Part shown: positions 13,900 through 39,283 of the stretch, piece by piece
How the letters are laid out: every line of letters starts with the position of its first letter
Position numbering within the stretch: position 1 is the first letter of the stretch
Assembly (NCBI GenBank): GCA_014729395.1
Contig: WJJZ01000006.1
Span: 7,090 to 71,089, forward strand
Source of the DNA: Candidatus Magasanikiibacteriota bacterium
GTDB taxonomy: Bacteria; Patescibacteriota; Patescibacteriia; Magasanikbacterales; UBA922
Direction: 5' to 3'
Length of the DNA stretch: 64,000 nt
Notes under the pieces: model-generated
What the model saw: only the letters and a program-made list of their open reading frames with translations
Database searches by the model: none
Told to the model about the DNA's origin: nothing
Program-made: the position numbers and the translations under genes

Positions 13900-14426
13900 A
13901 AAAAATGATTGATCCAAAGGATATCATTAGGTCAGCAAAAATGTGCTTAAAACATGATATTATCCCCCAATATTCTTTTATGATAGGCTTGCCCGGTGAA
14001 GAAAAGAATGAGATGATGGAGACATTGAAATTGATTGATAAATTAGTAAAATTGAGTTCCAAAGTTCAAATTTTAGGCCCACAGGCTTTTAGGCCATACC
14101 CGGGTTCTGAGCTATATGAGGAGTGTGTAATGTCTGGTTGGAAAGCACCGGAAACCCTTTATGAGTGGTCTGATTTGGTTGAAAATGAATTAAATTATTT
14201 GACTGTACAAAATTTCCCCTGGGTTAAACATAAGGATTTTGTGGAATCCATGGAAGCTTATGTAAGATTTGGAGCTCACAATATCAAAAGTGCTTTGGGT
14301 TCAACAGTTAGTAGTAATAAATTATTGAAATTGAGTTTTATTTTGCTATGTAAACTACGCTGGAAATTAAAATTTTTTAATTGGCCAGTTGAATTTAAAT
14401 TAGCTAAAAAGTTTGTTAGTAAATAA
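13842..14426 (+). CDS. C-terminal continuation of the same B12-binding radical SAM protein in the -1 frame (interrupted gene, pseudogene, sequencing indel or recoding site)
   Basis: From ...KKIKKMIDP onward the translation continues the radical SAM domain (IGLPGEE...). Joining at the A-run gives ...ESGCPRILKKIKKMIDP.., a normal ~500-aa B12-rSAM. Confidence 0.55.
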   Translation: MLSVIIWCGIRLSQNFKKIKKMIDPKDIIRSAKMCLKHDIIPQYSFMIGLPGEEKNEMMETLKLIDKLVKLSSKVQILGPQAFRPYPGSELYEECVMSGWKAPETLYEWSDLVENELNYLTVQNFPWVKHKDFVESMEAYVRFGAHNIKSALGSTVSSNKLLKLSFILLCKLRWKLKFFNWPVEFKLAKKFVSK

Positions 14427-16626: not shown

Positions 16627-16628
16627 TT

Positions 16629-17477: not shown

Positions 17478-17490
17478 AAAATTTTAGTAA

Positions 17491-18576: not shown

Positions 18577-18591
18577 GTTTATTAACTTATT

Positions 18592-19320
18592 ATGGAATTT
18601 AAAAAAAAAGAAAAAAAATTTTTAATAGTAGGTACCGGTAGAACCGGATCTTCTCTGCTATCTGCAATACTTTTAAAAAGTGGTGCAGATTTTGGCCTGA
18701 GGTCCAAAGATATTTGGGATAGACAAAAGGGCGATTTTGAACACTCGCTTATTCATGAAGCCTATAAATGGCAATCTAGGGTAGAAAAAATAGACCAATC
18801 AATACTGCCGAATTATTTTACAGTTTCTTTTTTTAACAATATTTGTAATAAGAAAATGGAGCAATTATTGACAGAAGTTGATTATGTAAAATCAAGTCAA
18901 TTAGTCTGGTTGGTTCATAGGGCTAAATACAAATTGGGTTTTGAGGTCAAAGTTATTGGAGTTTACAGGAATTTCTCTGATTATGTGATAAGTAGATATA
19001 AGAAATATGGAAGAAGTCTGGATCACTGGAGAAAAGAGTGGTTGGAGGTAAACAAAACACTTTTTTTGCAGGCTCAAATTATTCCTTCTCTGTTATTAAG
19101 TTATGAAGAAATTGTTGGTAGAAATGAAACTAAATGGATAGATAGGTTGGCACTATTTACAAATATAAGCAGAGAAAAATTAAGTTTTGCAGCCAATGAG
19201 ATAGTAGATAAAAAAAGTCACAAGAGAATTATGCAATATAATTTTGAAGATGACGACACCAGAAGAGTCTATAATCGGTTAAAGATGTTTAGTAATAAGT
19301 CCTCTATAGATAATAGATAA
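18592..19320 (+). CDS. Sulfotransferase family protein
   Basis: FLIVGTGRTGSSLL 5'-PSB-like motif and a mid-protein YRNFSDYVISRY motif. Confidence 0.65.
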   Translation: MEFKKKEKKFLIVGTGRTGSSLLSAILLKSGADFGLRSKDIWDRQKGDFEHSLIHEAYKWQSRVEKIDQSILPNYFTVSFFNNICNKKMEQLLTEVDYVKSSQLVWLVHRAKYKLGFEVKVIGVYRNFSDYVISRYKKYGRSLDHWRKEWLEVNKTLFLQAQIIPSLLLSYEEIVGRNETKWIDRLALFTNISREKLSFAANEIVDKKSHKRIMQYNFEDDDTRRVYNRLKMFSNKSSIDNR

Positions 19321-19356
19321 TAGATTTGGGATTATATAGACAATATTTTAACATAT

Positions 19357-20232
19357 ATGCCAGTAAATAAATGCAATTTATTTTTTATAGTGGGCTCATA
19401 TCGATCCGGTACAACTTTATTGAGGAATATTTTGAATTTACATGAGGACGTGGCCGTGGTGCCGGAAATGCATTTTTTTGACAATTTGATTGCTAACAGA
19501 AAAAAATATGGTGATATTAAAAAAAGAAAAAATAAGGTTGAGCTTGTGGATAACATATTTTTTAAAATAAAGAATTTTAATATTAGCCGTGGTGATTATT
19601 GGGAGAATATCAATTTGGATCATAAGTTATTAAAAAGTAAAATGTTAGACTGTACTGATTTGCGTGAATTATTTTTTGTTTTAGCCAGTTCTTTGTCAAG
19701 CAAGAATTCTTTCTCTGTTTTGATTGAAAAGACTCCGTATAATGTGTTCTTTTTAGAACAAATTACTGAGTTGTTTCCTGAAGCAGGAATAATACACATA
19801 ATTAGAGATGGACGAGAGGTCTGTGCTTCGGCCTGTAAAAGATGGGGTCTTGATTATTTAGGCCCGGCCACCAGGTGGAAAGATTCTATTAAAAGTTATG
19901 AAAAATATAATAAAAAAAATAAAGATAAGAAGGAAAAATTTATAGAAATTAGATATGAAGATTTAGTAGATGAACCAAAAAATACTATAAATAAAATTTT
20001 TAAATTTATAAATTTGGGATTAAACGAAAGTTTTTTTGAAAGAATGTCTGATCTCCCGTCTACAAGTTCATTTACTAGATATAAAAAAAATTTTGGCCTG
20101 TATAAAAGTAATAATTTTAAAAAATTTTTTTCTGATTCAGAACAGGATATAATTAACTATTTACTATATGAAGAGCTTAAGAAAAAAAATATAAGACCCA
20201 AACAACCAAGATTTATTTTTTTAAAAAGATAA
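19357..20232 (+). CDS. Sulfotransferase family protein
   Basis: FFIVGSYRSGTTLL and IIRDGREV (3'-PB RDGR) motifs. Confidence 0.7.
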   Translation: MPVNKCNLFFIVGSYRSGTTLLRNILNLHEDVAVVPEMHFFDNLIANRKKYGDIKKRKNKVELVDNIFFKIKNFNISRGDYWENINLDHKLLKSKMLDCTDLRELFFVLASSLSSKNSFSVLIEKTPYNVFFLEQITELFPEAGIIHIIRDGREVCASACKRWGLDYLGPATRWKDSIKSYEKYNKKNKDKKEKFIEIRYEDLVDEPKNTINKIFKFINLGLNESFFERMSDLPSTSSFTRYKKNFGLYKSNNFKKFFSDSEQDIINYLLYEELKKKNIRPKQPRFIFLKR

Positions 20233-20340
20233 AATTAGAGTTTAGAAGATTGAAATCATTTATTTATATATACTTTCAGAGAATCGGTAGGTTTTATATT
20301 TATAAAAAAATTAGAAAAAAAATAAAAAAATTCTTTTAAC

Positions 20341-21213
20341 ATGAATAAGCCAAGATTACATTATATTGGGATCGGTGGGCAGAAATGCGCAACGAGTTGG
20401 CTATCAAAATGTATCTCTGAACACCCTGAATTAGATATTTTTCCGGGTAAGGAAATTCATTTTTTTAGTGAAACTAAAAAATACAATAAAGGCTTAGAAT
20501 TTTATACAAATTTTTTTAAAGACTGTGATTTCAGTAAGAAGGTGGGGGAGTTCAGTACGACTTATCTGAATTCTTTTAAAGCTGCTGATCGGATTAAGGA
20601 GTATTACCCGGATATTAAAATTATTGTTTCCATCAGAAATCCGATCGATCGAGCCGTCTCACATGTTAGGCATTTATTATCAACCGGAAAAATTAATTAT
20701 TTCCGTAATTGGGATGATCCGTTTTTGATAGAACAATCCCTTATCGAACGTGGATATTATGGAAAATATGTTGAATATTATATCAAACTGTTCGGTAGAG
20801 AGAATATATTGATTATTTTATTTGATGATATTTCGAATAAACCTGACAAAGTAGTTAAAGATATTTATACTTTTCTTGATGTTGATAATTCTTTTAAACC
20901 AAGCAGTATAGATAAAAAATATAATAGTAGTAATGCAAGATCTTTCTCAGCTTTTTGGTTATTAAACAATATATATTTAAAATATAGAAATAATTCATTA
21001 TTTAAAATATCAACATCAATATTTAAAAAAATGGGCATTAATTCAGTTTTGATTAATAATTTTTTTGATAAACTTGGCAAAGTTAAAATAGAAAAAATAA
21101 AATTCAAAAGAAGTGAGTTGATTGAAATATATAGAGATGATATAAAAAAAACGGAACGAATAACAAAGAGAGATTTATCGGATTGGTATACTTTTAATGA
21201 AAAAGAAATATAA
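20341..21213 (+). CDS. Sulfotransferase family protein (subfamily with an IGIG..KCATSW...HPE N-terminus)
   Basis: YIGIGGQKCATSWLSKCISEHPEL and SIRNPIDRAVSH motifs. Confidence 0.7.
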   Translation: MNKPRLHYIGIGGQKCATSWLSKCISEHPELDIFPGKEIHFFSETKKYNKGLEFYTNFFKDCDFSKKVGEFSTTYLNSFKAADRIKEYYPDIKIIVSIRNPIDRAVSHVRHLLSTGKINYFRNWDDPFLIEQSLIERGYYGKYVEYYIKLFGRENILIILFDDISNKPDKVVKDIYTFLDVDNSFKPSSIDKKYNSSNARSFSAFWLLNNIYLKYRNNSLFKISTSIFKKMGINSVLINNFFDKLGKVKIEKIKFKRSELIEIYRDDIKKTERITKRDLSDWYTFNEKEI

Positions 21214-21274
21214 AAAATTATTGTACTTTATATATTAATGTTATAATCAAATAATATAGATTCTTTTAAAAAAT

Positions 21275-22690
21275 ATGATAAGTTTATCTAAGTTTTCAAA
21301 ATTTATAAACAACAACAAGATACCAATTTTTCTATTTTTTTTGGCTCTTTTGAGCGGTTTTTTTTGGAACCACCGTTTTTATTTTCAAGCGATTCCAAGC
21401 GGCGGCGACCAAAGACAATATAGTTGCCTTGCAATCGATATGATCGAAAATGGAACGTATACGGAATGTGGTACTGAAAGTTTCTTAGAACCGGGATATC
21501 CATTATTTTTGGCCAGTATTTTTTTATTTTCAGATACTAGCCCCATTGCTGTGAGATTCGTTCAATTGTTTATTTTTGGTGTTATTGTAGTTTTAATATA
21601 TTTTTTGAGCAGAAGATTATTTGATAGTAAGGTAGCTTTCATAGCAGGGTTATTTACAGCCTTACATTGGAGTCTAGCTAACTATACCGGTTCTCTCATA
21701 CGAGAGGTTTTTTTAGTTTTTTCTATTCTGCTTTTAGTTTATTCATTATATATCGCAGTTTCGAGCAAAAAAAATACACATTTTATAATATCCGGGTTGC
21801 TTTTTGGGGTTGTGGCACTTTCGAATGCTATTATAGAATATTTTTTATTGTTTATAATTATTAATTTTATAATTATATTAAGAAAAAAAATAGAGATAAA
21901 GCAAATTTTTTTAAAGATAGGTTTATTTCTTTTTGCATTTTGTTTAATTTTGAGTCCGTGGATTGTAAGAAACTCTCTCTATTATAATAAACTGGTTGTT
22001 TCGCTTACACCAAAGAAGGGTCATATTTTGAGTATGAGGGCCGCCTTGATGGAGGAGATGTACCCGAATATTCATAAATATTATTTTGGTCATCTTTTTG
22101 GTTATTATTTTGCAGAAAAAGTATATCCGGATTTGGATATTTGGGCGTTTAGGGATTTTAATGCTGCGAATAGCGTCATGTTGGAATTGCGCGAAGAAGG
22201 GTATAATCTGAATCAAATAGATGAAATAATTTCAGAAAGAGCTGTTAATAAAATTATCACACAACCTCATAAATATGTAGCTTTTTGTATTTTAGATTTT
22301 TTAAATTTTAACAGTCCATTGATACCACAAAAAATATTCATGGGTAATTCTTATGTCCATTATACCTTTGCTGAAGGTAGATTCCCAACTGTACCCGGCT
22401 ATGTAAAATCAGGTGTGTTGATATTATTTCGAATCTACTGGTATACATTTTTGTTTTTAGTTATTTATGGTCTTTGTAAAAATATAAAAAATTGGGAAAA
22501 AATAAGTTGGTTTTTTTTGATTATTTTATATTTTAATGGTGTATATAGTGCGGTTCATGCACTCCCTCGCTATGCTGTCCAAATTTATCCTTTTTATATA
22601 ATATTAGCTTCAGCAGGAGTATTAATCTTATTTAAAAAATATAAGCATAAAATCAAAAGTTTAGTCGGTAAATTAAGTAAAACCAAATAA
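21275..22690 (+). CDS. GT-C fold polytopic membrane glycosyltransferase (ArnT/PMT-like, GT39/GT83-type)
   Basis: About 11 TM helices. The first periplasmic loop has a D/E-rich GGDQRQY..AIDMIENG motif reminiscent of ArnT/PMT_2 enzymes. Confidence 0.5.
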   Translation: MISLSKFSKFINNNKIPIFLFFLALLSGFFWNHRFYFQAIPSGGDQRQYSCLAIDMIENGTYTECGTESFLEPGYPLFLASIFLFSDTSPIAVRFVQLFIFGVIVVLIYFLSRRLFDSKVAFIAGLFTALHWSLANYTGSLIREVFLVFSILLLVYSLYIAVSSKKNTHFIISGLLFGVVALSNAIIEYFLLFIIINFIIILRKKIEIKQIFLKIGLFLFAFCLILSPWIVRNSLYYNKLVVSLTPKKGHILSMRAALMEEMYPNIHKYYFGHLFGYYFAEKVYPDLDIWAFRDFNAANSVMLELREEGYNLNQIDEIISERAVNKIITQPHKYVAFCILDFLNFNSPLIPQKIFMGNSYVHYTFAEGRFPTVPGYVKSGVLILFRIYWYTFLFLVIYGLCKNIKNWEKISWFFLIILYFNGVYSAVHALPRYAVQIYPFYIILASAGVLILFKKYKHKIKSLVGKLSKTK

Positions 22691-22693
22691 ATT

Positions 22694-23629
22694 ATGTTCA
22701 TGCCGATTATAAAAAAAATTAGTGTTTTCATACCATTTTTAATAACCGGTCTGATTATATATCTACTTTTTAGTAATTTTGATATTGGACAGACTGTAAG
22801 AATAATCCAAACCGGCTCAAAATTTTTTTTGTTTTTATCAATATTTTTTATTTTTTTGACCACTTTAGTTCTGGCTTTACGATGGAAAATAATGCTTGGT
22901 TTATGCGGGCACAAAGATTCTTATAATAATATATTAAAAAAATATTTAGCGAGCGTGCCTTTTTCCAAAACAACTCCTTCAAATAGTGGAGATTTTATAC
23001 GAGCCGTATATACAAAAAATAAAATTGGTCTTACAAAAGGTTCCGGTATTGTTTTTATGGAAAATTTACTTGATATTTATGTTTTGACCTTTTTTGCGTT
23101 ATTCGGATCCTTAATAAAAGGAATGTTAGGTATATTTTTGATTATTTTTTTTATTGTAGTATTATCGTTTTTTTTACTGTTCATCTTAAATAAAATTAAT
23201 TTATCAAAATTAAGGTTAAATAATAAGTTCAAGCAGAAAATACAGTCTTTTTTTTCTATTTTTAGAGAATTTAAGAAAAATTCCATATCGTTTTTTTTAA
23301 AAATTTTGATCTTGACATCGTCAGCTTGGATACTTGTGATAGGCAGCTTTGTTTGCCTATTCATTGCTTTTGGGATAGATGTTCCCTTTTTTGAAGTTGT
23401 ATTTTTGCAACCGATTATTATTTTTTTAGGTTTGTTGCCGATTACGGTTTCCGGGGTGGGTATAAGGGAGTCGGCAATAATATTTTTTTATGCCGGCTAT
23501 GGATCAGCTGCATCATTAATGGCGGTAGGATTGTCTTATTCATGTTTTTCTGCTATTATTTTACCACTGTTATACCTGCCTTTTAGTTATCAGATTATTA
23601 AGAAAAAGCTTTTTTATGCAAGAAAATAA
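22694..23629 (+). CDS. Flippase-like / lysyl-PG-synthase-TM-family (UPF0104) membrane protein
   Basis: Eight TM helices and an LLPITVSGVGIRES motif. It sits between the GT-C gene and a Dpm1-like GT2, as in polyprenyl-phosphate-sugar pathways. Confidence 0.45.
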   Translation: MFMPIIKKISVFIPFLITGLIIYLLFSNFDIGQTVRIIQTGSKFFLFLSIFFIFLTTLVLALRWKIMLGLCGHKDSYNNILKKYLASVPFSKTTPSNSGDFIRAVYTKNKIGLTKGSGIVFMENLLDIYVLTFFALFGSLIKGMLGIFLIIFFIVVLSFFLLFILNKINLSKLRLNNKFKQKIQSFFSIFREFKKNSISFFLKILILTSSAWILVIGSFVCLFIAFGIDVPFFEVVFLQPIIIFLGLLPITVSGVGIRESAIIFFYAGYGSAASLMAVGLSYSCFSAIILPLLYLPFSYQIIKKKLFYARK

Positions 23630-24503
23630 ATATGAAATAAATGATAAATTGTCAATTTCATTCGTTATTCCCGTTTACAACGAAGAAATAATAATAAGAA
23701 ATGTGCTCGAAGATTTGAAGCAATATTTACGGTCTTTGGATATAAATTATGAAGTCATTGTCGTTAATGACGGTTCAAGCGACGATAGTAAAGAGATATT
23801 GGAATCCATAGATAATATTAGAGTTGTGAACCACCCATACAACAAAGGTTATGGTGCAGCTTTAAAAACCGGAGCCATGTTAGCTCGGTTCAAGTGGGTT
23901 ATGTTTTATGATGGCGACGGACAGCACAAGCCGAAATTAATTGGAGACTTAATTAAACATAATTCTCAATATGATATGATAGTAGGTGCGCGAGTCGGAT
24001 ACAAAGGTCCATGGATTAGGCAGCCGGGAAAAAAAATTTTAGGTGTGTTGGCAAATTATTTGGTAGATTTTAAAATTCCTGATTTGAATTCAGGTTTAAG
24101 GATGGTAAAGAAAGATTTTTTTGTCAAATATATCCATCTTTATCCGGATTCTTTCTCTCTTTCTACGACTATCACCATGGCTTTTTTAAAGGCCGGTTTA
24201 AATGTAAAATATGTACCGATTGAGATAAATAAACGGGTGGGTAAGAGTTCGGTCTCACCCAGGGACGCACTTAAAACTTTTATTTTGCTCATGCGAATGA
24301 TAGCCCTATTTGCGCCAATGAGAATTATTTTTCCAATAAGTCTTATATTTTTTGTTATGACACTGGTTTCTGTATCTTATGATCTATGGTTAAAAAATAT
24401 TTCTGATATTTCAGTAATTTTATTTGTTACAACAATTTTATTTTTTATTTTTGGAGTGATTTTAGATCAAATATCAGCCGTTAGAAGGGAGTTGAATAAA
24501 TAA
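23616..24503 (+). CDS. GT2 glycosyltransferase, Dpm1/ArnC-like polyprenyl-phosphate sugar synthase with C-terminal TM helices
   Basis: ISFVIPVYNEE, VIVVNDGSSDDS, NKGYGAALKTG and DGDGQH motifs plus two C-terminal TM segments. Confidence 0.75.
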   Translation: MQENKYEINDKLSISFVIPVYNEEIIIRNVLEDLKQYLRSLDINYEVIVVNDGSSDDSKEILESIDNIRVVNHPYNKGYGAALKTGAMLARFKWVMFYDGDGQHKPKLIGDLIKHNSQYDMIVGARVGYKGPWIRQPGKKILGVLANYLVDFKIPDLNSGLRMVKKDFFVKYIHLYPDSFSLSTTITMAFLKAGLNVKYVPIEINKRVGKSSVSPRDALKTFILLMRMIALFAPMRIIFPISLIFFVMTLVSVSYDLWLKNISDISVILFVTTILFFIFGVILDQISAVRRELNK

Positions 24504-24507
24504 TTAT

Positions 24508-25038
24508 ATGGCTAAATTAGATTATTTAGGTGAAAAATTATTAGATTCAAGAATTAAAGTTTCAATGCCTTATATAACCGGACGTCTTTTAGATTTGGGG
24601 TGTGGAACTAATAAGCTGGTTAGAAATTATAGAGGAGAAGGAGTGGGAGTTGATGTTTTTGATTTTGGTGATGTGGATTTGATTGTGGAAGACAGCAGTA
24701 AAATTCCTTTTGAAGATGAAAGTTTTGATACGATAACCATATTAGCCGCTTTAAATCATATTCCAAATAGGGAGCGGGTTTTACAGGAGATGCACCGATT
24801 ACTAAAGCCGGACGGTAAGTTGTTGGTAACGATGATCAGCCCGTTAATTTCTTTTTGTTGGCATACTTTGCGTGCTCCTTGGGACAGGGATCAAAAAGAA
24901 AGAGGAATGGAAGAAGGGGAAGTTTATGGTATAACCCCCCAAGAAATGATTAAAATGCTGGAGACAGCTGGTTTTTGTGTACAAAGTAAAAAACGTTTTA
25001 TGTTAGGTTTAAATAGACTATATATAGTTCAAAAGTAA
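24508..25038 (+). CDS. Class I SAM-dependent methyltransferase
   Basis: LLDLGCGTNKL motif I and an LLKPDGKLLV post-I region. Confidence 0.6.
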   Translation: MAKLDYLGEKLLDSRIKVSMPYITGRLLDLGCGTNKLVRNYRGEGVGVDVFDFGDVDLIVEDSSKIPFEDESFDTITILAALNHIPNRERVLQEMHRLLKPDGKLLVTMISPLISFCWHTLRAPWDRDQKERGMEEGEVYGITPQEMIKMLETAGFCVQSKKRFMLGLNRLYIVQK

Positions 25039-25044
25039 AGTTGT

Positions 25045-27036
25045 ATGTGTGGTATATTTGGAGCAGTTATTCCAAAAAAAAATAAATTCGATGATAAAGA
25101 ATTAGAAAAGTTTACACAAAAACTTTTTAAATTTTCTGAATCAAGAGGTAAAGAAGCTTCGGGTTTAGCAAGATTGTTTCCAAAAAAAATTGATGTTATA
25201 AAAGAACCTTTTCCAAGCTCTTTTTTAACAAAAATACATAAATTCAAAAAAATTATAAGTGAAAAATCTGACTCTTTTGTAATTATGGGCCATACCAGAT
25301 TGGTTACGAATGGGACACTTGAAAAAAAAGAAAATAATCAACCGGTAGTAAGAGAAGATATTGTTACCGTCCATAATGGAATTATAGTAAACGAAAAGGA
25401 TATATGGTCCGAGATTAAAGATGTTGAACGTGAGTTTGAAGTGGATACGGAACTAATCCCGGTTTTGTTAAGGAAATATTTAAAAAACGGTGACAGTTTT
25501 TCGATTGCAATTTCAAAGACGTTTTCTAAAATAGAAGGTATGGCTTCTATTTGTGCTTTTTTTACGGATTCAGACCATATTTTACTTGCCACAAACAATG
25601 GTTCATTGTATTTTTTAAAAGATAAAAATAATTATCTTATATTTGCATCTGAATATAATATTTTGAAATCTCTGTGTAAAAAATTTAAAAGTCAATTTAC
25701 AGAGGAAAACATTAAGAAATTGAATGCAAACAAAGCTTGTCTTGTGAATACGAGGGATTTGGAAGAGTTAATTTTTTTTGATTTAACTGATGAAAAAGCA
25801 GTCGCCAATAATAATTTGAACATTATAAATACCACCAAACGTACTATTAATGTGTTACCGAGTGAGAAAGCAAATCATTATAATATTACTCAAAATGTAA
25901 ATTATAATGATAGACAAGATTTTATTGATAATTCTGATTATGAAAAGATAAAAAAAATGCGTAGGTGTAAAATATGTATTTTGCCCGAGACTATGCCTTT
26001 CATAAATTTTGATAAAAATGGAATTTGCAATTATTGTAAAAGTTATAAGAAAATTAAACTAAAAGGAAAAGAAAAATTGAATGATGACATTAATAAATAT
26101 TTAAATAAAAAAACAGACAAGATTGTCGTTGCTCTAAGTGGTGGAAGAGATTCTTGCTACGGACTCCATTATGCGAAAACGGTTTTAGGGCTGAATGTGG
26201 TAACTTTTTCTTATGATTGGGGTATGATTACCGACTTGGCTCGACGTAACCAGTCTAGAATGTGTGCCAAATTGGGTGTAGAGCATATTTTAGTATCAGC
26301 CAATATAAAAAGAAAAAGAGAAAATATTAAAAAAAATGTAAAAGCCTGGCTTAGAAAACCTGATTTGGGAACCATACCTTTGTTTATGGCCGGAGACAAA
26401 CAATATTTTTATTATGCTAACAAAGTAATGAAGCAAACCGCATCTAGAGCTATAATAATGAGTGAAAATAATTTGGAAAGAACGCATTTTAAACATGGTT
26501 TTTGTGGGGTTGAACACAATGATAATATCAGGCCGGCTTATTTTTTGTCCAGTGGGGATAAATTTAAGATGATGCTGTATTTTTTTAAAAAGTTTGTTGG
26601 AAATCCCGGCTATATCAATAGTTCGCTACTTGATTCATTTGGTGGTTACCTATCTTATTATTTCGTTCCGCATAATTACATTTATTTGTTTAATTATGTT
26701 CCGTGGCTAGAAAGTAATGTTAATAATGTTTTGGTTAACGAATACAATTGGGAGTTAGCTGGCGACACTGAATCAACTTGGCGGATAGGAGATGGGACAG
26801 CTCCATTTTATAATTATATTTATTATACCGTAGCCGGATTTACAGAAAACGATACTTTTCGTAGTAATCAAGTTAGAGAAGGGATTATATCAAGGGAGGA
26901 AGCTTTAGAATTGGCAGATAGAGACAATCAACCTAGATTGGAATCGATAAAATGGTATTGTGACACAATCGGTATTGACTTTAAAGAAAGTTTAAAAATT
27001 ATTAATTTAATTCCCAAATTATATGGTGATGTTTAA
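25045..27036 (+). CDS. Two-domain amidotransferase. The N-terminal class-II (Ntn, asparagine-synthase-type) glutamine amidotransferase domain is fused to a PseA/WbpG-like N-acetyl-sugar amidotransferase (Zn-ribbon plus PP-loop ATP pyrophosphatase).
   Basis: Starts with MCGIFG (catalytic Cys2) and has GHTRLVTNG and VHNGIIVN. The middle has CKICILPE...CNYC and the PP-loop VVALSGGRDSCY. Confidence 0.6.
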   Translation: MCGIFGAVIPKKNKFDDKELEKFTQKLFKFSESRGKEASGLARLFPKKIDVIKEPFPSSFLTKIHKFKKIISEKSDSFVIMGHTRLVTNGTLEKKENNQPVVREDIVTVHNGIIVNEKDIWSEIKDVEREFEVDTELIPVLLRKYLKNGDSFSIAISKTFSKIEGMASICAFFTDSDHILLATNNGSLYFLKDKNNYLIFASEYNILKSLCKKFKSQFTEENIKKLNANKACLVNTRDLEELIFFDLTDEKAVANNNLNIINTTKRTINVLPSEKANHYNITQNVNYNDRQDFIDNSDYEKIKKMRRCKICILPETMPFINFDKNGICNYCKSYKKIKLKGKEKLNDDINKYLNKKTDKIVVALSGGRDSCYGLHYAKTVLGLNVVTFSYDWGMITDLARRNQSRMCAKLGVEHILVSANIKRKRENIKKNVKAWLRKPDLGTIPLFMAGDKQYFYYANKVMKQTASRAIIMSENNLERTHFKHGFCGVEHNDNIRPAYFLSSGDKFKMMLYFFKKFVGNPGYINSSLLDSFGGYLSYYFVPHNYIYLFNYVPWLESNVNNVLVNEYNWELAGDTESTWRIGDGTAPFYNYIYYTVAGFTENDTFRSNQVREGIISREEALELADRDNQPRLESIKWYCDTIGIDFKESLKIINLIPKLYGDV

Positions 27037-28090
27037 TGTAGCAAAATCAATTGTCAAAAATAAATTTAATAAAATTTCCTATCCTTCTTTTATTACCTAT
27101 TTAATCACATGGCGTTGTAATAGCCGGTGTATTTTTTGTGATGTGTGGAAAAAGAGAGCCGGGCAAATTGATGAGCTTGATATCGATGAAATAGAAAAGG
27201 CATTTTCTCAATTAAAAAAGCTCGATGTCTTGCGTTTGAGCGGGGGAGAGCCTTTTCTTAGAAAAGATTTGGCAGAAGTGATAAATTTGATCGATAAAAT
27301 TAACAAGCCAAGTCTAATTCATTTAACGTCCAATGGAATGCTGACCGAAATAATATCTGAAACTGTAAAGAAAATTAAGCCTTTAAATAAAATCCATATC
27401 AAGATTTCAATAGATAATGTGGGTGAGAAACATGATAAAGTTCGACAAATACCCGGCGCATACAATAAGGCAATGGAGACAGTAAGGATGTTGTCTAATG
27501 TCAGTAAAGAGACCGGTCTTCATGTTGGGGTTAATCAAGTGGTCGTGAATGAATCTGATATAGATTCGTATTTTGAATTAAAGAAAATTTTGAGTGAATA
27601 TAATGTACCGATTTATCCGGTTATTGCCAATCAACCAACTAATAGTCTGTATAGTGACAGTGGTGTGGTAGACCCCAACATATCTTTCAAACCTTTTGGG
27701 GATTTTTCAAAAGAGGGTATTAAAAAATTTATGAAGATTTTACTGAGACATGGTAAAGAGGTGAATGATTTTAAAGAGCAAATGGTGGATAGGTACCATT
27801 TAAAGGGTTTGTATAATCGTTTAGTAGAGGAGAAAAATAATCCTAATCCGAAGTGTGTAGCATTGAATAACCACCTAAGAATTTTACCAAATGGTGATAT
27901 TCCGGTATGTATGTATAATGGTTCTATAGTTGGTAATTTGAGAAATGAAAAATTTAAAGATATTTGGTTTGGAGACAAAATTAAAAAATATAGAACTTAT
28001 GTTAATAATTGTCCCGGTTGTTGGCAGAGTTGTGAGACAGCCGTAAGTGCTATTTATACCGGTGATATTATGAAAGGTATGTTTTATTAA
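27023..28090 (+). CDS. Radical SAM / SPASM-type enzyme
   Basis: CNSRCIFC (CxxxCxxC) near the N-terminus, a GGEPFL glycine-rich motif, and a C-terminal Cys cluster CPGCWQSC. It overlaps the upstream amidotransferase by 14 nt. Confidence 0.65.
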   Translation: MVMFNVAKSIVKNKFNKISYPSFITYLITWRCNSRCIFCDVWKKRAGQIDELDIDEIEKAFSQLKKLDVLRLSGGEPFLRKDLAEVINLIDKINKPSLIHLTSNGMLTEIISETVKKIKPLNKIHIKISIDNVGEKHDKVRQIPGAYNKAMETVRMLSNVSKETGLHVGVNQVVVNESDIDSYFELKKILSEYNVPIYPVIANQPTNSLYSDSGVVDPNISFKPFGDFSKEGIKKFMKILLRHGKEVNDFKEQMVDRYHLKGLYNRLVEEKNNPNPKCVALNNHLRILPNGDIPVCMYNGSIVGNLRNEKFKDIWFGDKIKKYRTYVNNCPGCWQSCETAVSAIYTGDIMKGMFY

Positions 28091-28136
28091 TATATTTATT
28101 TGGTAACTGTCTGATGTTTATATTAATATAATTACG

Positions 28137-28967
28137 ATGAATATAGTTTTTATACTTGGGAGTGGACATTGTGGTTCAACATTGCTTGACCTTATTTTGG
28201 ATTGTCATTCTAAAATAATCGGGGTTGGTGAATTTGAAAATGTAGGTAAGGAGAAACTGTGTAGTTGTGGCAGGGATTTTGAGGAGTGCGAGCTTTGGAA
28301 AAATATTTTAAAGCATAGGGATTTGTCGAAATTGAAGATATTTAGAACTAAAAAAGATTTTTTGTTAAACAAAAATAATTTTTATTACTATAAAAAAGAG
28401 ATGCGGTCGGTTGATTTAAATTCCTATATTACTGAGAATGAAAATATGTTTGATCAGGTTTTGGGTTTTTTTGACCAAAAGAAGGATTTTATAGTTGATT
28501 CTTCAAAGAACGTTGATAGATTTGAGCTACTTTTTAAAAGTAATTATATTAGACCGATTATTTTACATGTTGTCCGTGATGGTCGGGCTGTAACCTGGTC
28601 ATATTTTAAAAAGTACAAGAAAGCTATGCCTTATATGTGGAAATGGTTTGCACAAAATTTTAAAATTTATTATCTAAAAAAAAGAAACAAAGCGGATTAT
28701 GTTTTTGTACGTTATGAAAACTTAGCTAAAAATCCTAAAAAAGAAATTGAACGTATACTTAATAGCTTAGGTTTGGTTTATGAAGAGAATATGTTAAATT
28801 TTAGAAATTTTACTCATCATCAGGCTGGTGGTAATAGAATGCGTTTGTCCGGCACTAATGAGATAAAAGAAGATGTAAGTTGGAAAAAGAATTTACCTAT
28901 GAAATATCGACTGTTATTCAATATTTTGTTTGGCTGGTTAAATTTTTATTATGCAAGAAAAAGGTAA
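28137..28967 (+). CDS. Sulfotransferase family protein
   Basis: VFILGSGHCGSTLL and VVRDGRAVTWS motifs. Confidence 0.65.
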   Translation: MNIVFILGSGHCGSTLLDLILDCHSKIIGVGEFENVGKEKLCSCGRDFEECELWKNILKHRDLSKLKIFRTKKDFLLNKNNFYYYKKEMRSVDLNSYITENENMFDQVLGFFDQKKDFIVDSSKNVDRFELLFKSNYIRPIILHVVRDGRAVTWSYFKKYKKAMPYMWKWFAQNFKIYYLKKRNKADYVFVRYENLAKNPKKEIERILNSLGLVYEENMLNFRNFTHHQAGGNRMRLSGTNEIKEDVSWKKNLPMKYRLLFNILFGWLNFYYARKR

Positions 28968-29850
28968 TAAATTTAAAATTAATTTTATTGGCGTGGGGAC
29001 ACCAAGAAGCGGTACTACATGGATATCCAAATGTTTATCTGAACACTCGCAAATTTGTTTCTCAAAGGAAAAAGAAACTCATTTTTTTGATAAAGATTAT
29101 AATTTTGACAAGGGTCTGGAATACTACCGGTCTTTTTTTGAAAATAAAGAGAAGCAAGAGGGTGTGATTCTGGGTGAATTTACACCGAGCTATTATCGTG
29201 ATGAGAAGTGCGCAAAAAGAATTAAAACATTTTTTCCTGATGTAAAAATTATATTATGTTTGAGAAATCCCGTTGATAGAGCTCTGTCTGATTATCGTTA
29301 CAATAAAAAGAGAGGTGCTAAGCTGGGTCAAAATTTACTTGAAGAGCCTGAATTAAACTTGGATGAAAGAGTGGTGTCAGACGGTTTTTTTTATAATCAT
29401 TTAGAAAAGTTTTTAATTCCTTTTAATTTCAATAATATTCATATTATCCTGCATAAAGATATTAAAAAACACCCGGATAAAGTTCTTAGAAAGCTTTATG
29501 ATTTTTTGGGGGTGAATAATGATTTTATTCCGTCCTCGCTACATCAGAGGGTCAACACCACCGAAGGCACCAATTATCGTTACCCGGCGATAAATAGAAT
29601 TATTAATTATAGAAAAAAATTGAAAAACGATGCTGTAGGTCGATTTATATTAAATATTTTTAAATTACTTGGCATTGGTTATTTGTCAAAAAAGTTAATT
29701 CAAGCCAATAAGACATCCAAACAAAAAAATATTTTTTCTGAAGAGGAAATTAACAATTTTAAAATAAAATTATTTGATGTTTACTTAAAGGATATTAATA
29801 AATTGGAAGACTTGATAAAAAAAGATCTTAGTATATGGAAACAGATTTAG
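28951..29850 (+). CDS. Sulfotransferase family protein (IGVG..RSGTTW...HSQI subfamily)
   Basis: FIGVGTPRSGTTWISKCLSEHSQI and LCLRNPVDRALSDY motifs. Confidence 0.7.
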   Translation: MQEKGNKFKINFIGVGTPRSGTTWISKCLSEHSQICFSKEKETHFFDKDYNFDKGLEYYRSFFENKEKQEGVILGEFTPSYYRDEKCAKRIKTFFPDVKIILCLRNPVDRALSDYRYNKKRGAKLGQNLLEEPELNLDERVVSDGFFYNHLEKFLIPFNFNNIHIILHKDIKKHPDKVLRKLYDFLGVNNDFIPSSLHQRVNTTEGTNYRYPAINRIINYRKKLKNDAVGRFILNIFKLLGIGYLSKKLIQANKTSKQKNIFSEEEINNFKIKLFDVYLKDINKLEDLIKKDLSIWKQI

Positions 29851-31025: not shown

Positions 31026-32092
31026 AAAAAATATTAATAATAGGTTCATATAATAAAGAATATCCCAGAAATAAAGTATTAATAAATACACTTAAGGACT
31101 TTTTTGATATTGAAGAAATTAACAACAAATATGAAAAATGGACCAGGCATGTATTTTTTTTAAAAGCAGTTTTAAAACATAGAAAGGAAAAAGATTTTTT
31201 ACTTTTGTTACATCCAGCTCGTAAATTTGTCTTTAGTTTGTTTCTGTCTAAAATATTTTTTAGTGGTAAAATCATTGTGGATGCTTTTAACTCGGTTTAT
31301 GATTCCTTTATCTATGATCGTAAATTAGCGAGTAAATATTCGATTAAAGCTTTTTATTATTTTCTTTCGGATTATTTAATGTGTAGATTGACCGATATCA
31401 TATTTTTTGATACACGGGAACACAAAGATTACTTCATTAATAAATTTAAAATTAAGGATTTTAAGAAAAAAGTTGTCCTACCTGTTTCTGTTGATTTAAA
31501 TTTATTTGAAGATGTTCCTGACTTATCTGATAAAGGTATCTTTCCTAAGGATAAATTTAATATTTTTTTCTATGGTTGTTATATACCCTTGCAGGGTATA
31601 GAGTATATTGTAAAAGCTGCTAAAATTTTAGAAAAAGAAAAGTTAATGAATTTTGTCCTGTTAGGTGCGGGACAAACTAGAAAAGAGATAAATGCTTTAT
31701 GCGAAAAATTACAATCAAAGAATATTACCTTTATTGATCGAGTTCCTTATGAAGATTTAATAAAATATATAAATGCATCGGATGTGTGTCTGGGTATTTT
31801 TGGTGATACTGATAAGGCTATGAGGGTTGTTCCCAATAAAGTTTTGGAATACGGTGCTTGTAAAAAAATAGTTGTAACAGGTAGAAATAAAGCAATGGAG
31901 AGATACTTTGAAGATGGCAGAGATTTATTATATTGTAATATGGCAGACGAACATGATTTGTCAAAAAAAATACTCCGGGTTTATCATGATTATGATAGTT
32001 ATATTAAAATGGGGGATAATATCTATAAAAAAATTAAGCAAAATTTTACTAAAGAGTCGTTGGCTGAAATTATAAATAAAGAGCTAACATGA
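31022..32092 (+). CDS. Probable GT4-like glycosyltransferase
   Basis: Two Rossmann-like halves, with KVLEYGACKKIVVT near the C-terminus. The motifs are weak. Confidence 0.4.
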   Translation: MKKILIIGSYNKEYPRNKVLINTLKDFFDIEEINNKYEKWTRHVFFLKAVLKHRKEKDFLLLLHPARKFVFSLFLSKIFFSGKIIVDAFNSVYDSFIYDRKLASKYSIKAFYYFLSDYLMCRLTDIIFFDTREHKDYFINKFKIKDFKKKVVLPVSVDLNLFEDVPDLSDKGIFPKDKFNIFFYGCYIPLQGIEYIVKAAKILEKEKLMNFVLLGAGQTRKEINALCEKLQSKNITFIDRVPYEDLIKYINASDVCLGIFGDTDKAMRVVPNKVLEYGACKKIVVTGRNKAMERYFEDGRDLLYCNMADEHDLSKKILRVYHDYDSYIKMGDNIYKKIKQNFTKESLAEIINKELT

Positions 32093-33429
32093 GTATTAAA
32101 AATTTTTACAATAAAAAAGTATATAAAAAAATTAACAGATTTCGTAGGAAGGCTATTTTGAGTTTTATAAAGAAAAATAATCCGGTTGTACTTGATGTGG
32201 GCTGTGGTCGCGGTTTGCTTGGTGAAATAATTAAAAAAGAAAAAAAAGCTACTGTTTTTGGTATTGATATTTCAGAAGACGCAACAAAGGAGGCATCTAA
32301 AAAGCTAGATAATGTTTTTTGTTTTAATTTGGAGACAAATCAGGAGTGGCCGGATGAATTAAAGATGCAAGAATATGATTATGTTGTTATTTCCGAAGTT
32401 TTGGAACACTTGATGGAGCCCGAGGAGATTTTATTTAAAATAAAGCAGGCAATTAGCCATAATACCGAGATAATAATTACAGTCCCCAATATTTTATGGT
32501 GGAAAAATAGATTAAAGATTTTTCTAGGACATTTTGAGTATACTGATAGTGGTCTTATGGACAAAGGGCATATCCATTTTTTTTCCTGGAAAAGTTTTAA
32601 GGATTTAATTAGAAAGACCGGCTATCATATAACACAAGAAAATCACCACATCCCTACACGAGGGACAAAATATTTTGGTAGGATTTGGCCCGGACTTTTT
32701 GCTAAACAGTTTATTGTGAAAATTAAAAAAAATAACATTGTTATATATACTGCTATCTTGGGGGGCAAAGATGCTCTTACAGAACCAAAGTTTATTCCGG
32801 ATAATTGTGATTTTATTTGTTTTACAGATGATGAGGTTTTAAAATCAAAGACTTGGAAAGTGGTAAATATCGGGGTTGGTTCCGGTGACCCGGCTAGGGA
32901 TTCACGAGAAATGAAATTATTACCACATAAGTATTTATCCGATTATGAATATAGTATTTGGGTTGATGGTAATATGTTGGTTCACGGCGACGTTAATGAG
33001 TTAATTGATAAGTATTTGAAAAGCAACAATATTGCCATGTTTGATCATAATCAATTGACTGGGGATAAAAGGAATTGTATATACAAAGAAGCCGAAGTGT
33101 TGGTGAAAATGGCAAAAACAGAAAAATACAAAGATGACCCTAGTTTAATATTAAAACAAGTTAGTAGATATAAAGAAGAGGGGTACCCAGAGGATAATGG
33201 ATTGATATCGGGTATGGTTATTTTAAGGAAGCATAATTATTACGATGTAAAGAAGGTAATGGAAGATTGGTGGTCCGAATTAAAAAATAATAGTAAGCGC
33301 GATCAGTTGAGTTTTAACTATGTGGCATGGAAGAATAATTTGGATTTTGTGTATATCCAAGGTGATTCAAGAGATAATAAGTACTTTAAGCGTTTACCCC
33401 ATTTAAGAAAAAAGAACTATAAAATATGA
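32089..33429 (+). CDS. Fusion of a class I SAM methyltransferase (N-terminal) and a DUF616-like putative glycosyltransferase domain (C-terminal)
   Basis: VLDVGCGRGLLG methyltransferase motif. The C-terminal half has IVIYTAILGGKD...FICFTDDE, recalled as typical of DUF616/TOD1-like proteins. Confidence 0.5.
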   Translation: MSIKNFYNKKVYKKINRFRRKAILSFIKKNNPVVLDVGCGRGLLGEIIKKEKKATVFGIDISEDATKEASKKLDNVFCFNLETNQEWPDELKMQEYDYVVISEVLEHLMEPEEILFKIKQAISHNTEIIITVPNILWWKNRLKIFLGHFEYTDSGLMDKGHIHFFSWKSFKDLIRKTGYHITQENHHIPTRGTKYFGRIWPGLFAKQFIVKIKKNNIVIYTAILGGKDALTEPKFIPDNCDFICFTDDEVLKSKTWKVVNIGVGSGDPARDSREMKLLPHKYLSDYEYSIWVDGNMLVHGDVNELIDKYLKSNNIAMFDHNQLTGDKRNCIYKEAEVLVKMAKTEKYKDDPSLILKQVSRYKEEGYPEDNGLISGMVILRKHNYYDVKKVMEDWWSELKNNSKRDQLSFNYVAWKNNLDFVYIQGDSRDNKYFKRLPHLRKKNYKI

Positions 33430-34298
33430 GCCCTAAAGTATCAGTTATCATTCCGACTTATAATCGACCTGAATTTATTGACAAAGCCATAAAGTCAGTT
33501 TTAAATCAAACTTATCAGGATTTTGAAGTTATTGTTGTTGATGATGGTACAAGGGTTAGGGCTGAAGATGTGGTTAAGAAAATAAAAGACAATAGAGTGG
33601 TGTATATAAAACATCCGGAAAATAGGGGTGGAGGAGCCGCCAGAAACACAGGGATAAAAAAATCCAGGGGAGAATATGTTGCCTTTCTGGATGACGATGA
33701 TGAGTGGTTGCCGGAAAAATTGGAGATACAAATGAAGGAATTTGAAAAGGCGGGTGATGACGTGGGTTTTTGTTTTTCTAGTGTGATCAATAAAACAAAA
33801 GAAGGAGACAAAACCAAAGAAGTCTACGATGGGATAAAAAATTTCCACGAGGATGTCTTACGTAATTTTAAAGGGTTTTTAACTGTCACTCTAATAATAA
33901 AAAGAAAAGTTTTTGATGAGGTGGGTGGTTTTGATGAAAGATTTCCAAGCCATCAAGAACCGGATTTGATTATTAGAGTAACAAAAAAATATAGGGGTTT
34001 GGGTGTAAATAAGCCATTGGTAAAAGTGAATATGATGGGGGACCATGATCATATTGGAGCCAACTTAGATAAAAGAATTGCGGGACGCAGGATGATATTG
34101 AATAAATATTTGGGTGAATTTAAAAAAAAGCCAAGATTTTTGGCAAAGCATTATTTTCAGTTGGCTATTTTTTTAAGAGACGATGGAGAAATTGAAGAGG
34201 CGAGTGAGTTTTTTAAAAAAGCGTGGAAAACAAATTTTCATTGGCGGTATTTTGCTCATTATGTTGTTATGAAAATAAAAACCATTTATATATATTAA
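33426..34298 (+). CDS. GT2-family glycosyltransferase
   Basis: VSVIIPTYNRPEFI, VIVVDDG and FLDDDDEW (DxD) motifs. Confidence 0.75.
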   Translation: MSPKVSVIIPTYNRPEFIDKAIKSVLNQTYQDFEVIVVDDGTRVRAEDVVKKIKDNRVVYIKHPENRGGGAARNTGIKKSRGEYVAFLDDDDEWLPEKLEIQMKEFEKAGDDVGFCFSSVINKTKEGDKTKEVYDGIKNFHEDVLRNFKGFLTVTLIIKRKVFDEVGGFDERFPSHQEPDLIIRVTKKYRGLGVNKPLVKVNMMGDHDHIGANLDKRIAGRRMILNKYLGEFKKKPRFLAKHYFQLAIFLRDDGEIEEASEFFKKAWKTNFHWRYFAHYVVMKIKTIYIY

Positions 34299-35233
34299 TT
34301 ATCCCAATTTAGCTTGCGGTTAAGAAATTTTTCTAATTTTTTATTTTCTTCTCTATATATATCGTTTATAATTTTGCGATATTTAGGTGATAATTGAGGT
34401 CTTTTTTGTAGAGATGTTATTGAGTGTACTGACCTGTCGCAAAATTTTAGTGTATTAAGGGCTAAGTTATTTACTGTATTATTTTTAATAATCGGCATTA
34501 CTCTTTTTTTTATAGAGGATTGCATAAGGTTGTTTTTAATTTTTTGGTAAGTTTTTAGTGTTTTATTATTTTTTTTCCAGGTAGGGTTTGGCACATAATT
34601 TAAAAGCGATGGTGTAAAATTTTTATCCACATCCAAAAAAATATAAATTCTTTTAATAAATTTTTCGGGGTTTACCTTTAGGTCGTCGTGTAATAATAAA
34701 AGAATTTTATCTTTATCAAAAAAATTTAGGTAATTATTTATATGTTTCATATAAAATCCCGTGGATATAATTTCATCATTATTTAAAAAATGATCGAACG
34801 AGAAGAATTTTTTTTCATATTTTTTTTCATAGTTTCCTTTAGCATGTAGATAGTGAGAGTAAAGGCGATCTGTAGGATTCCTTAGGATTGCTATTATTTT
34901 CGTTTCAGGAAAATGTTTTTTGATTAATTTTGGTGTGTCTTTGTCAAATAAGTAATAAACACTGAATTCACCTATTATATTTCCCGGCTTACAATGCCTG
35001 AAATTTTTTTTGTATTCATCAATCCCTTTTGTGTATTTCCACTCTTCATCTTTTCTATAAAAAGGCCTGAATTTGTTAAAAAAATCCAATTCTTTATTGT
35101 TTGAAAGACATATTTGTGGGTGCTCCCTTAGGCATTTTGCCGTCCAACTGGTACCGCATTTGGGAGCACCAACTCCTATGAAATCTATTTTAAAATCATC
35201 TTGATTCATTTTTTTAGCATTTTTTTTGGCCAT
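34295..35233 (-). CDS. Sulfotransferase family protein (IGVG..KCGTSW...HPQI subfamily)
   Basis: FIGVGAPKCGTSWTAKCLREHPQI and AILRNPTDRLYSHY motifs. Confidence 0.7.
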   Translation of the reverse strand: MAKKNAKKMNQDDFKIDFIGVGAPKCGTSWTAKCLREHPQICLSNNKELDFFNKFRPFYRKDEEWKYTKGIDEYKKNFRHCKPGNIIGEFSVYYLFDKDTPKLIKKHFPETKIIAILRNPTDRLYSHYLHAKGNYEKKYEKKFFSFDHFLNNDEIISTGFYMKHINNYLNFFDKDKILLLLHDDLKVNPEKFIKRIYIFLDVDKNFTPSLLNYVPNPTWKKNNKTLKTYQKIKNNLMQSSIKKRVMPIIKNNTVNNLALNTLKFCDRSVHSITSLQKRPQLSPKYRKIINDIYREENKKLEKFLNRKLNWDN

Positions 35234-35572
35234 GATGTTTTTTTGTTAATTCATTATAATAAAATCAGATTCTTTGAATTTAATTTTTCTCCTATTCGTG
35301 GGTTCCATTAGAATATTAATAAATGACTATTTTAAAATGGTAAATCTAAAGTATGATTTCCACATTTTTTCTCCAATTGGATTTTTAATTCCTTCAGGGG
35401 TCATGTGGTTGTAAAAACCCTTGTTATTTGGTGAGTGTTGATATTAATCGTCGTCATTTTTTAGTATGTGGAAATAGATATAATAATATTTTCCTTGTTA
35501 CAATGTTTAGTAAGATTAATTTTTACGCTGATGCCATAACTTTACTTAATTTTATAAACATATATGATCATA

Positions 35573-36823: not shown

Positions 36824-36878
36824 ATTTTAATATCTTAATTATTAGTGGATTATTATATCACTATTTTGTTCGATTTTA

Positions 36879-39280: not shown

Positions 39281-39283
39281 TTT

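Follow-up and report, generated by a model that had tools for sequence, protein, structure and literature searches.

A putative N-acetyl-sugar amidotransferase with a built-in class-II glutaminase, encoded in a glycan gene block of a Candidatus Magasanikiibacteriota bacterium

Acetamidino sugars are positively charged. In Campylobacter, Legionella, Pseudomonas and methanogens they influence motility, the serotype, and recognition by phages and antibodies. The acetamidino group has been tied genetically to the N-acetyl-sugar amidotransferases (NASATs; PMC2952790, PMC3766260, PMC10607449), which include WbuX, WbpG, PseA, PtmG, MMP1081 and the Legionella enzyme LpNASAT. The family was defined by the motifs SGGXDS and CXXCXn[GN]XCXXC in the paper that describes the LpNASAT structure 8WEX (PMC10607449). 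Deletion of MMP1081 leads to loss of the acetamidino group (PMC2952790), PtmG converts CMP-Leg5Ac7Ac to CMP-Leg5Am7Ac, and the pair formed by this NASAT and the methyltransferase PtmH, which N-methylates the amidine, yields an N-methylacetimidoyl group (PMC3766260). No reconstituted NASAT reaction was found in the searchable literature. Here we describe a gene from a 64,000-nucleotide stretch of DNA (hereafter, the window) of a Candidatus Magasanikiibacteriota bacterium (assembly GCA_014729395.1, contig WJJZ01000006.1, positions 7,090 to 71,089), which encodes a class-II glutaminase and a NASAT-like ATP-pyrophosphatase domain in a single polypeptide. We establish the identity of both domains, the integrity of their catalytic motifs, the size of the family and its genomic associations. 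Judged from sequence comparison, the fused enzyme is probably an N-acetyl-sugar amidotransferase that depends on glutamine, needs no separate ammonia donor and works for a cassette for decoration with polyprenyl-phosphate sugars.

The fused gene is clearly real, since a homology search recovered an identical deposited protein, annotated as hypothetical, from a Candidatus Magasanikbacteria metagenome-assembled genome, together with full-length homologues at E ≤ 1e-198. Its ATG is the earliest start codon past the upstream stop, which leaves no room for an N-terminal extension that would bury Cys2; once the methionine is removed this cysteine is residue 1 of the protein, and it is invariant in the 30 homologues that were aligned. 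A preliminary description, made from the letters of the window alone, had given a protein of 663 amino acids that begins with MCGIFG and has a zinc ribbon of the pattern CxxC...CxxC followed by the PP-loop SGGRDS, all of which are present in the translation, the zinc motif there reading CxxC...GxCxxC. It had assigned two thirds of the protein to the NASAT-like part, which in fact spans residues ~305–663, or ~55%.

The N-terminal domain is a class-II glutaminase of the N-terminal nucleophile (Ntn) type that is closer to GlmS than to AsnB, and it is predicted to be active. Residues 68–208 were matched by two Pfam models, GATase_7 at 52.1 bits against a cut-off of 25 and GATase_6 at 46.9 bits against one of 27, and in NCBIfam the GlmS models scored 70.9–73.7 bits, compared with 50 bits for the AsnB model TIGR01536. 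The GlmS N-terminus was matched by all 30 aligned homologues and the AsnB model by 13. Along with C2, the residues R34, R85, T88, N111-G112 and D134 are invariant among these homologues; from an alignment to 1xff, we take them to be the counterparts of the glutamine-site residues of GlmS. In a search of Protein Data Bank (PDB) sequences the family profile matched the GlmS glutaminase domain 4amv (E 2.5e-16). The GlmS/GFAT glutaminase domain is the best match to residues 1–240 in both sequence and structure and has the same catalytic residues, whereas the SIS isomerase domain of these enzymes is lacking here and the acceptor domain is unrelated. The glutaminase had been called AsnB-type in the preliminary description; its class and its Cys2 nucleophile were correctly recognized there, but the GlmS-type models score higher.

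In the C-terminal part, TIGR03573 (WbuX, N-acetyl sugar amidotransferase) aligned to residues 305–651 over profile positions 1–341 of 344 (E 7.7e-32), and the family profile matched residues 78–385 of the 8WEX chain in the PDB sequence search (E 2.2e-15). When the two sequences are aligned residue by residue, the second cysteine pair is in register and SGGRDS stands opposite the SGGKDS of 8WEX. The four zinc-motif cysteines and SGGRDS are all invariant across the 30 homologues. With TIGR03573 matched nearly end to end and 8WEX recovered, the WbuX/WbpG/PseA-type domain of the preliminary description is borne out, and the two parts that it had proposed to look for in a domain search, a glutaminase N-terminus and TIGR03573, were both found.

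An AlphaFold2 (AF2) model of the fused enzyme, built from the 30-sequence alignment, reached a mean predicted local distance difference test score (pLDDT) of 86.2 and a predicted template-modelling score (pTM) of 0.88. Disorder was confined to the linker at residues 252–287, with pLDDT < 50 at residues 252–263 and 273–287, and we therefore read the model as a defined two-domain arrangement. Foldseek placed the N-terminal domain with GFAT/GlmS, AsnB and PurF, the Ntn-hydrolase fold being matched with a probability of 1.00, and the C-terminal domain with 8WEX (E 2.1e-11, TM score 0.54 on the target, 20% identity). No global superposition on a known two-domain enzyme was found in the Foldseek search with this model.

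The logic of an Ntn glutaminase that hands ammonia to a PP-loop ATP-pyrophosphatase is shared with AsnB, beta-lactam synthetase and TsnB9. These enzymes, however, belong to another PP-loop family; the fused enzyme lacks the Asn_synthase domain (PF00733), has a zinc ribbon and a glutaminase nearer to that of GlmS, and its AF2 model superposes poorly on them over the full length (TM score 0.28–0.37, root-mean-square deviation 22–23 Å). That the fused enzyme might simply be a housekeeping AsnB or GlmS, or a nucleoside- or tRNA-modifying PP-loop enzyme of the QueC, TilS or TtuA type, is very improbable. The names AsnB, GlmS, QueC and TilS all occur among the database annotations of the homologues, weak matches to QueC, TilS and LarE cover the PP-loop region, and, beyond its own family, LpNASAT is structurally nearest to enzymes of the TtuA type (PMC10607449). 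Yet neither PF00733 (in Pfam) nor the SIS domain of GlmS was found in the fused enzyme, the GlmS models aligned only at profile positions 1–226 of ~600, to the first ~230 residues, and TIGR01536 only at positions 1–188 of 517, within the glutaminase part. No AsnB chain was matched by the family profile in the PDB sequence search. The canonical AsnB C-terminus that the preliminary description had named as the alternative is thus absent, and both canonical AsnB and GlmS were rejected as candidates because the glutaminase part alone matches them in Pfam, in NCBIfam, in the PDB profile search and among the 30 homologues. The QueC and TilS matches extend over ~60–80 residues around the PP-loop and lie below the cut-offs (in Pfam, QueC and ATP_bind_3 matched weakly at residues 359–435), and glycan-synthesis genes are recognizable in nearly all of the 81 homologue loci analysed below.

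Fusion of the two domains is the rule in this subfamily, and it is common. A homologue search with the fused enzyme scored 7951 proteins at E ≤ 0.001, of which the best 119 other matches listed show 46–53% identity at E ≤ 1e-198 and nearly all cover the entire protein. In an exhaustive search with the C-terminal domain alone, in which representatives stand for clusters at 50% identity, 2654 representatives were found at E ≤ 0.001 and 381 at E ≤ 1e-30. Among the best 150 of these matches, 143 are proteins of 588–693 amino acids that were matched in the C-terminal half. The remaining seven are N-terminally truncated, fragment-like proteins, the stand-alone protein P0372 and an odd fusion, P0296; two of the truncated proteins, read individually, start inside the glutaminase domain. 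When one genome per species was scanned, at least 590 species genomes were found to encode a full-length relative. The 80 of these that were kept belong to Patescibacteria, Chloroflexota, Planctomycetota, Bacteroidota, Acidobacteriota, Pseudomonadota, Omnitrophota, Bacillota and archaea. Cultured strains with the fused enzyme include Ramlibacter humi and Oceanibacterium hippocampi CECT 7691, and the gene also resides on plasmids of Solidesulfovibrio carbinolicus DSM 3852 (pDCAR1; protein WP_129355994.1) and Agrobacterium sp. MA01. The fused family is much more conserved than typical NASATs: members from different phyla, and bacterial and archaeal members alike, are 45–53% identical.

This large family, whose metagenomic members number in the thousands, has no consistent name. 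Its members are annotated variously as hypothetical, AsnB, GlmS, QueC or TilS. In RefSeq the pDCAR1 homologue (locus L085, 8107–10071) is called a 7-cyano-7-deazaguanine synthase and the homologue of Agrobacterium sp. MA01 (L086, 8236–10050) a glucosamine 6-phosphate synthetase; both names are probably wrong. No paper describing a glutaminase–NASAT fusion was found in the searchable literature, which does not cover most subscription journals. The built-in glutaminase, considered unusual in the preliminary description, is therefore undescribed in that literature but common in genomes.

On the basis of established PP-loop chemistry and of NASAT genetics, we propose a mechanism for the fused enzyme. 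Glutamine would be hydrolysed at Cys2 of the Ntn domain to give ammonia, which may be channelled to the second active site. There the NASAT-type PP-loop domain would use ATP to adenylate the carbonyl oxygen of a sugar N-acetyl group, and attack by ammonia would then displace AMP, so that the acetamido group would become an acetamidino group, a positively charged amidine, with AMP and pyrophosphate as the other products. This is the chemistry assigned to WbuX, WbpG, PtmG and MMP1081, and we presume that the ATP-dependent conversion of acetamido to acetamidino is common to these NASATs and to the fused enzyme, as are both defining motifs, a similar predicted fold and a place in glycan gene clusters. 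The two differ in their source of ammonia: the fused enzyme has a covalently attached class-II glutaminase, which would substitute for the separate HisH/HisF-like donors. Such partners do accompany the described WbuX-type genes, as the preliminary description had said of NASATs (PMC11340318), and no HisH or HisF gene was found here, either among the annotated open reading frames (ORFs) of the window or among the 20 annotated recurrent neighbour clusters of the 81 loci.

To characterize the genomic context, ORFs were called around the homologues of the fused gene and five genes on each side were clustered; 81 loci from many phyla could be analysed, and the 20 recurrent neighbour clusters were annotated through representatives. 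The features of the window and the recurrent families are collected in Table 1.

Table 1 Genes and domains of the six-gene block in the window, and gene families recurring near homologues of the fused gene (five genes on each side)
Feature	Coordinates	Strand	Basis or remarks
GT-C type glycosyltransferase (PMT_2, ArnT-like)	21275..22690	+	PMT_2 44.9 bits, cut-off 26.1
Flippase-like membrane protein (LPG_synthase_TM / TIGR00374)	22694..23629	+	PF03706 129.9 bits; TIGR00374 83.4 bits, cut-off 43.2
Glycosyltransferase family 2 (GT2) protein resembling polyprenyl-phosphate glycosyltransferases	23616..24503	+	Glycos_transf_2 101.7 bits
Small S-adenosylmethionine (SAM)-dependent methyltransferase, 176 aa	24508..25038	+	Methyltransf_11, Methyltransf_23; ends 6 nt before fused gene
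Fused glutamine amidotransferase / NASAT-like PP-loop amidotransferase gene	25045..27036	+	663 aa; ORF call, Pfam and NCBIfam
Class-II (Ntn) glutaminase domain	25045..25764	+	aa 1–240; GATase_7, GATase_6 and GlmS models
Variable inter-domain linker	25765..25956	+	aa ~241–304; length and sequence differ across alignment
NASAT-like ATP-pyrophosphatase domain	25957..27033	+	aa 305–663; TIGR03573, 8WEX
Tetracysteine zinc motif CKIC-x16-GICNYC (C308, C311, C328, C331)	25966..26037	+	Translation
PP-loop SGGRDS (S365–S370)	26137..26154	+	Translation
Radical SAM/SPASM gene, 355 aa	27023..28090	+	Radical_SAM 70.3 bits, SPASM 36.7 bits
Neighbour: ~320-aa GT2			52/81 loci; most frequent neighbour
Neighbour: Wzx-type flippase			32/81 loci
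Neighbour: SAM methyltransferase			29/81 loci
Neighbour: glycosyltransferase family 4 (GT4)			27/81 loci
Neighbour: hexapeptide acetyltransferase			15/81 loci
Neighbour: SDR-type epimerase (short-chain dehydrogenase/reductase)			14/81 loci
Neighbour: PMT_2 GT-C			13/81 loci
Neighbour: LPG_synthase_TM flippase-like			12/81 loci
Neighbour: DegT aminotransferase			10/81 loci
Neighbour: WecB epimerase			10/81 loci
Neighbour: B12-radical SAM			8/81 loci
Neighbour: DUF354			8/81 loci
Neighbour: AsnB			7/81 loci

In the window the fused gene lies within a block of six genes (21275–28090) that are joined by gaps of ≤6 nt or by overlaps, while the block itself is bordered by gaps of 61 and 46 nt. A promoter and terminator scan of 21000–29000 gave counts not clearly above the shuffled expectation and is uninformative in this AT-rich DNA. 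Across the loci the most frequent neighbour is a putatively membrane-anchored GT2, which distinguishes the fused enzyme from the NASATs in that its recurrent partner resembles polyprenyl-phosphate glycosyltransferases. Of the 70 loci whose upstream flank is long enough, 33 have this GT2 at positions -1 to -3, for the most part on the strand of the fused gene, and where it directly adjoins the fused gene the gaps are mostly 3–21 nt. The GT2 of the window has three hydrophobic 19-mers past residue 220, C-terminal hydrophobic segments were found in 51 of 53 members of its family, and its best NCBIfam models, AglJ, PpgS, PgfS and ArnC, are all polyprenyl-phosphate glycosyltransferases. A homologue of the 176-aa methyltransferase directly adjoins the fused gene in 11 loci.

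A hexosamine carried by polyprenyl phosphate is what the GT2 partner suggests. We infer that the sugar to be tailored is an N-acetyl-hexosamine that the GT2 would load on polyprenyl phosphate, and that the fused enzyme would act on it either as the nucleotide sugar or in the lipid-linked form. The tailored lipid-linked sugar would then be flipped, and the GT-C enzyme would transfer it to a glycan of the cell surface. The methyltransferase next door may act as PtmH does and N-methylate the amidine. Hexapeptide acetyltransferases, DegT aminotransferases, GFO oxidoreductases and WecB epimerases make N-acetylated amino sugars, and genes for acetyltransferases, aminotransferases, oxidoreductases and 2-epimerases recur near the fused gene at other loci (GFO oxidoreductases in addition to the families of Table 1), which fits a substrate of this kind. 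Formation of an acetamidino group on an N-acetyl sugar is thus suggested by homology together with these neighbours.

With its GT2, flippase-like protein and GT-C enzyme, and with tailoring genes set among them, the window block resembles the three-component systems of extracytoplasmic glycosylation, such as GtrA/B/C, ArnC/ArnT, PpgS/Rv3779 and the Citrobacter undecaprenyl-phosphate-ribose system, although here the candidate flippase is an LPG_synthase_TM protein and not one of the GtrA or MATE type. We know of no description of an amidotransferase, a methyltransferase or a radical SAM enzyme as a tailoring gene of a three-component system. ArnD is an auxiliary enzyme that remodels a lipid-linked sugar. 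Further auxiliary enzymes that act on undecaprenyl-phosphate sugars are documented for such systems, and DprE1/E2 and ORF13 are precedents for the remodelling of lipid-linked sugars (PMC11127046).

Several observations weigh against our reading of the fused enzyme as a NASAT of a polyprenyl-phosphate-sugar cassette. Its TIGR03573 score of 111.1 bits is about half of the curated cut-off of 203.2, and although all 30 homologues matched the model, the best of them (E 3.6e-44) is judged to be still under the cut-off. The fused family therefore falls outside the curated NASAT subfamily, and its substrate or chemistry could be different. The GT2 scores far below the cut-offs of AglJ, PpgS, PgfS and ArnC, and 29 of the 81 loci have no such GT2 inside five genes. 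GT2, flippase-like protein and PMT_2 are all recognizable in only 7 of the 81 loci, so that we put forward the three-component assignment as a hypothesis. Finally, genes for aminotransferases and N-acetyltransferases are absent from the window, and the sugar would then have to derive from housekeeping UDP-GlcNAc.

A shift in chemistry, left possible by the low NASAT score, is what a uronamide-forming enzyme would require: its C-terminal domain would adenylate the carboxylate of a uronic acid and yield sugar-CONH2 by a non-AsnB route. Adenylation of carboxylates is common among PP-loop enzymes (AsnB, NadE, QueC), which counts for this alternative, as do the weak matches of the fused enzyme to QueC and other PP-loop models. 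Two genes for UDP-sugar dehydrogenases are present in the window (40113–41501 and 41505–42809), as the preliminary description had noted when it predicted amidated uronic acids or acetamidino sugars in the product; their link to the fused enzyme is weak, however, because they lie 13 kb downstream and no UDP-sugar dehydrogenase family is found among the recurrent neighbours of the 81 loci. AsnB-type genes are the usual candidates for uronamide formation, and true AsnB-type genes stand beside the fused gene in 7 of the 81 loci and on the Solidesulfovibrio plasmid, which argues that the fused enzyme has a different job. This co-occurrence and the missing conserved dehydrogenase neighbours make a uronamide product quite unlikely. 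NASAT is, moreover, the only full-length homology, and it is tied genetically to acetamidino groups (PMC2952790).

The place of the GT2 bears on a second alternative, that the fused enzyme uses soluble nucleotide sugars in ordinary repeat-unit synthesis, in which the GT2 merely transfers a finished sugar and no polyprenyl-phosphate monosaccharide route exists. We consider this unlikely. The GT2 has the length, the C-terminal membrane segments and the best models of the polyprenyl-phosphate glycosyltransferase type and, in numerous phyla, directly precedes the fused gene in the same orientation; in the window, the GT-C, flippase-like, GT2 and tailoring genes are joined by gaps of ≤6 nt; and the radical SAM/SPASM accessory gene occurs elsewhere in cassettes with GT2, GtrA and PMT_2. 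Wzx-type flippases and GT4 enzymes, on the other hand, are also common neighbours, the complete three-component signature is as rare as stated above, a hydrophobicity scan found no hydrophobic segment in the fused protein, and the described NASATs are thought to use nucleotide sugars, such as CMP-Leg5Ac7Ac in the case of PtmG (PMC3766260).

The last gene of the block encodes a radical SAM/SPASM protein. It carries the motif CX3CX2C (C32, C36, C39) and, towards the C-terminus, five cysteines that do not vary among 22 homologues; at least seven are present in a canonical SPASM domain with two clusters. At the junction with the fused gene (ATGGTGATGTTTAA) the overlap is 14 nt if the first ATG is used, in keeping with the preliminary description; a start at the GTG (27026) would make it 11 nt, and one at the second ATG (27029) 8 nt. 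The coupled modification step that had been read from this overlap did not hold up across genomes. A homologue of the radical SAM/SPASM protein was found by tblastn in 1 of 84 loci of the fused enzyme, and in the reverse test, with 80 metagenomic loci retrieved with the radical SAM protein as query, the fused gene was present in four (4 of the 16 loci at ≥45% radical SAM identity and none of the 64 below) and a GT2 in 35. Conserved coupling was rejected on these counts and because GT2 cassettes without the amidotransferase exist.

Of three distinct radical SAM contexts that were read in detail, two have no amidotransferase. One comprises a GT2, methyltransferases, a polysaccharide deacetylase, a FemAB-like acyltransferase, a GtrA-like protein and PMT_2, and another a GT2, methyltransferases and a B12-radical SAM protein. 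Homologues of the window radical SAM/SPASM protein lie in such cassettes at L087/L088 (600–9233) and L089. The third context, the metagenomic contig L090, has GT2, methyltransferase, glutaminase, NASAT-like domain and radical SAM/SPASM in the order of the window. It is best to regard the radical SAM protein and the amidotransferase as two independent accessory modules of a GT2 cassette that sometimes co-occur. The cassettes suggest that in the candidate phyla radiation (CPR) and in Omnitrophota the systems for polyprenyl-phosphate-sugar decoration are surrounded by tailoring enzymes of a modular kind. In L090 (5186–9332) the glutaminase is a separate ORF of 251 amino acids, while P0296 (756 aa) joins a NASAT-like domain to an LPG_synthase_TM flippase-like domain and is followed by the radical SAM/SPASM gene with a 4-nt overlap. 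No second fusion of the P0296 type was found among the 120 best matches. As a singleton with the glutaminase split off on the same contig, possibly through sequencing errors, P0296 was rejected as Rosetta-stone evidence and counted as adjacency only.

Several other features of the window were recorded. A B12-binding radical SAM gene at 12982–14426 is apparently split by a frameshift: a 471-aa homologue aligns in frame 3 as far as ~13890, whereas from ~13938 onwards it aligns in frame 2. The gene is a pseudogene, or else the assembly is wrong here; unbroken relatives of it flank the fused amidotransferase in eight other loci. The glycan region holds eight sulfotransferase genes (beginning at 16614, 18592, 19357, 20341, 28137 and 28951, and at 34295 and 36879 on the minus strand) as well as likely genes of sulfate activation to 3'-phosphoadenosine-5'-phosphosulfate (PAPS), namely those for an inositol-monophosphatase-family protein, maybe a CysQ-type phosphatase of 3'-phosphoadenosine 5'-phosphate, an adenylyl sulfate (APS) kinase and a PAPS_reduct-domain protein. 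These genes lie at 16614–21213, 28137–29850, 34295–37826 (minus strand) and 37927–39913, and they point to a heavily sulfated surface glycan in this Candidatus Magasanikbacteria (CPR) genome. A protein of 446 amino acids (32089–33429) combines a SAM methyltransferase with a TOD1/MUCI70 glycosyltransferase-like domain, a family named after plant proteins. An ORF on the minus strand (1868–5059), which encodes 1063 amino acids with five MopE-type putative metal-binding repeats, lies in a stretch with a GC content of 0.54, whereas 0.27–0.39 is usual in the window; a foreign origin of the DNA or a repeat protein of odd composition may account for this. Two tRNA genes (55959–56030 and 56270–56343), far downstream of the fused gene, are the only Rfam matches in the window.

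Fusions of a glutaminase with a PP-loop domain are a familiar theme; what is new here is a NASAT with a built-in class-II glutaminase. A correct family name would mend many annotations, and a glutamine-dependent enzyme in a single polypeptide would be a convenient object for the first biochemistry and structure of sugar amidine formation and of the ammonia channel, while the link to the GT2 offers a concrete and testable substrate hypothesis. Going further, we tentatively suggest that the fused family might make amidino sugars at the membrane and tailor three-component cassettes that mix amidotransferase, methyltransferase, deacetylase and radical SAM modules. If this is true, many uncultivated lineages, among them CPR bacteria, Chloroflexota, Planctomycetota and some archaea, would decorate their surfaces, via GT-C enzymes, with cationic and possibly N-methylated acetamidino-hexosamines.

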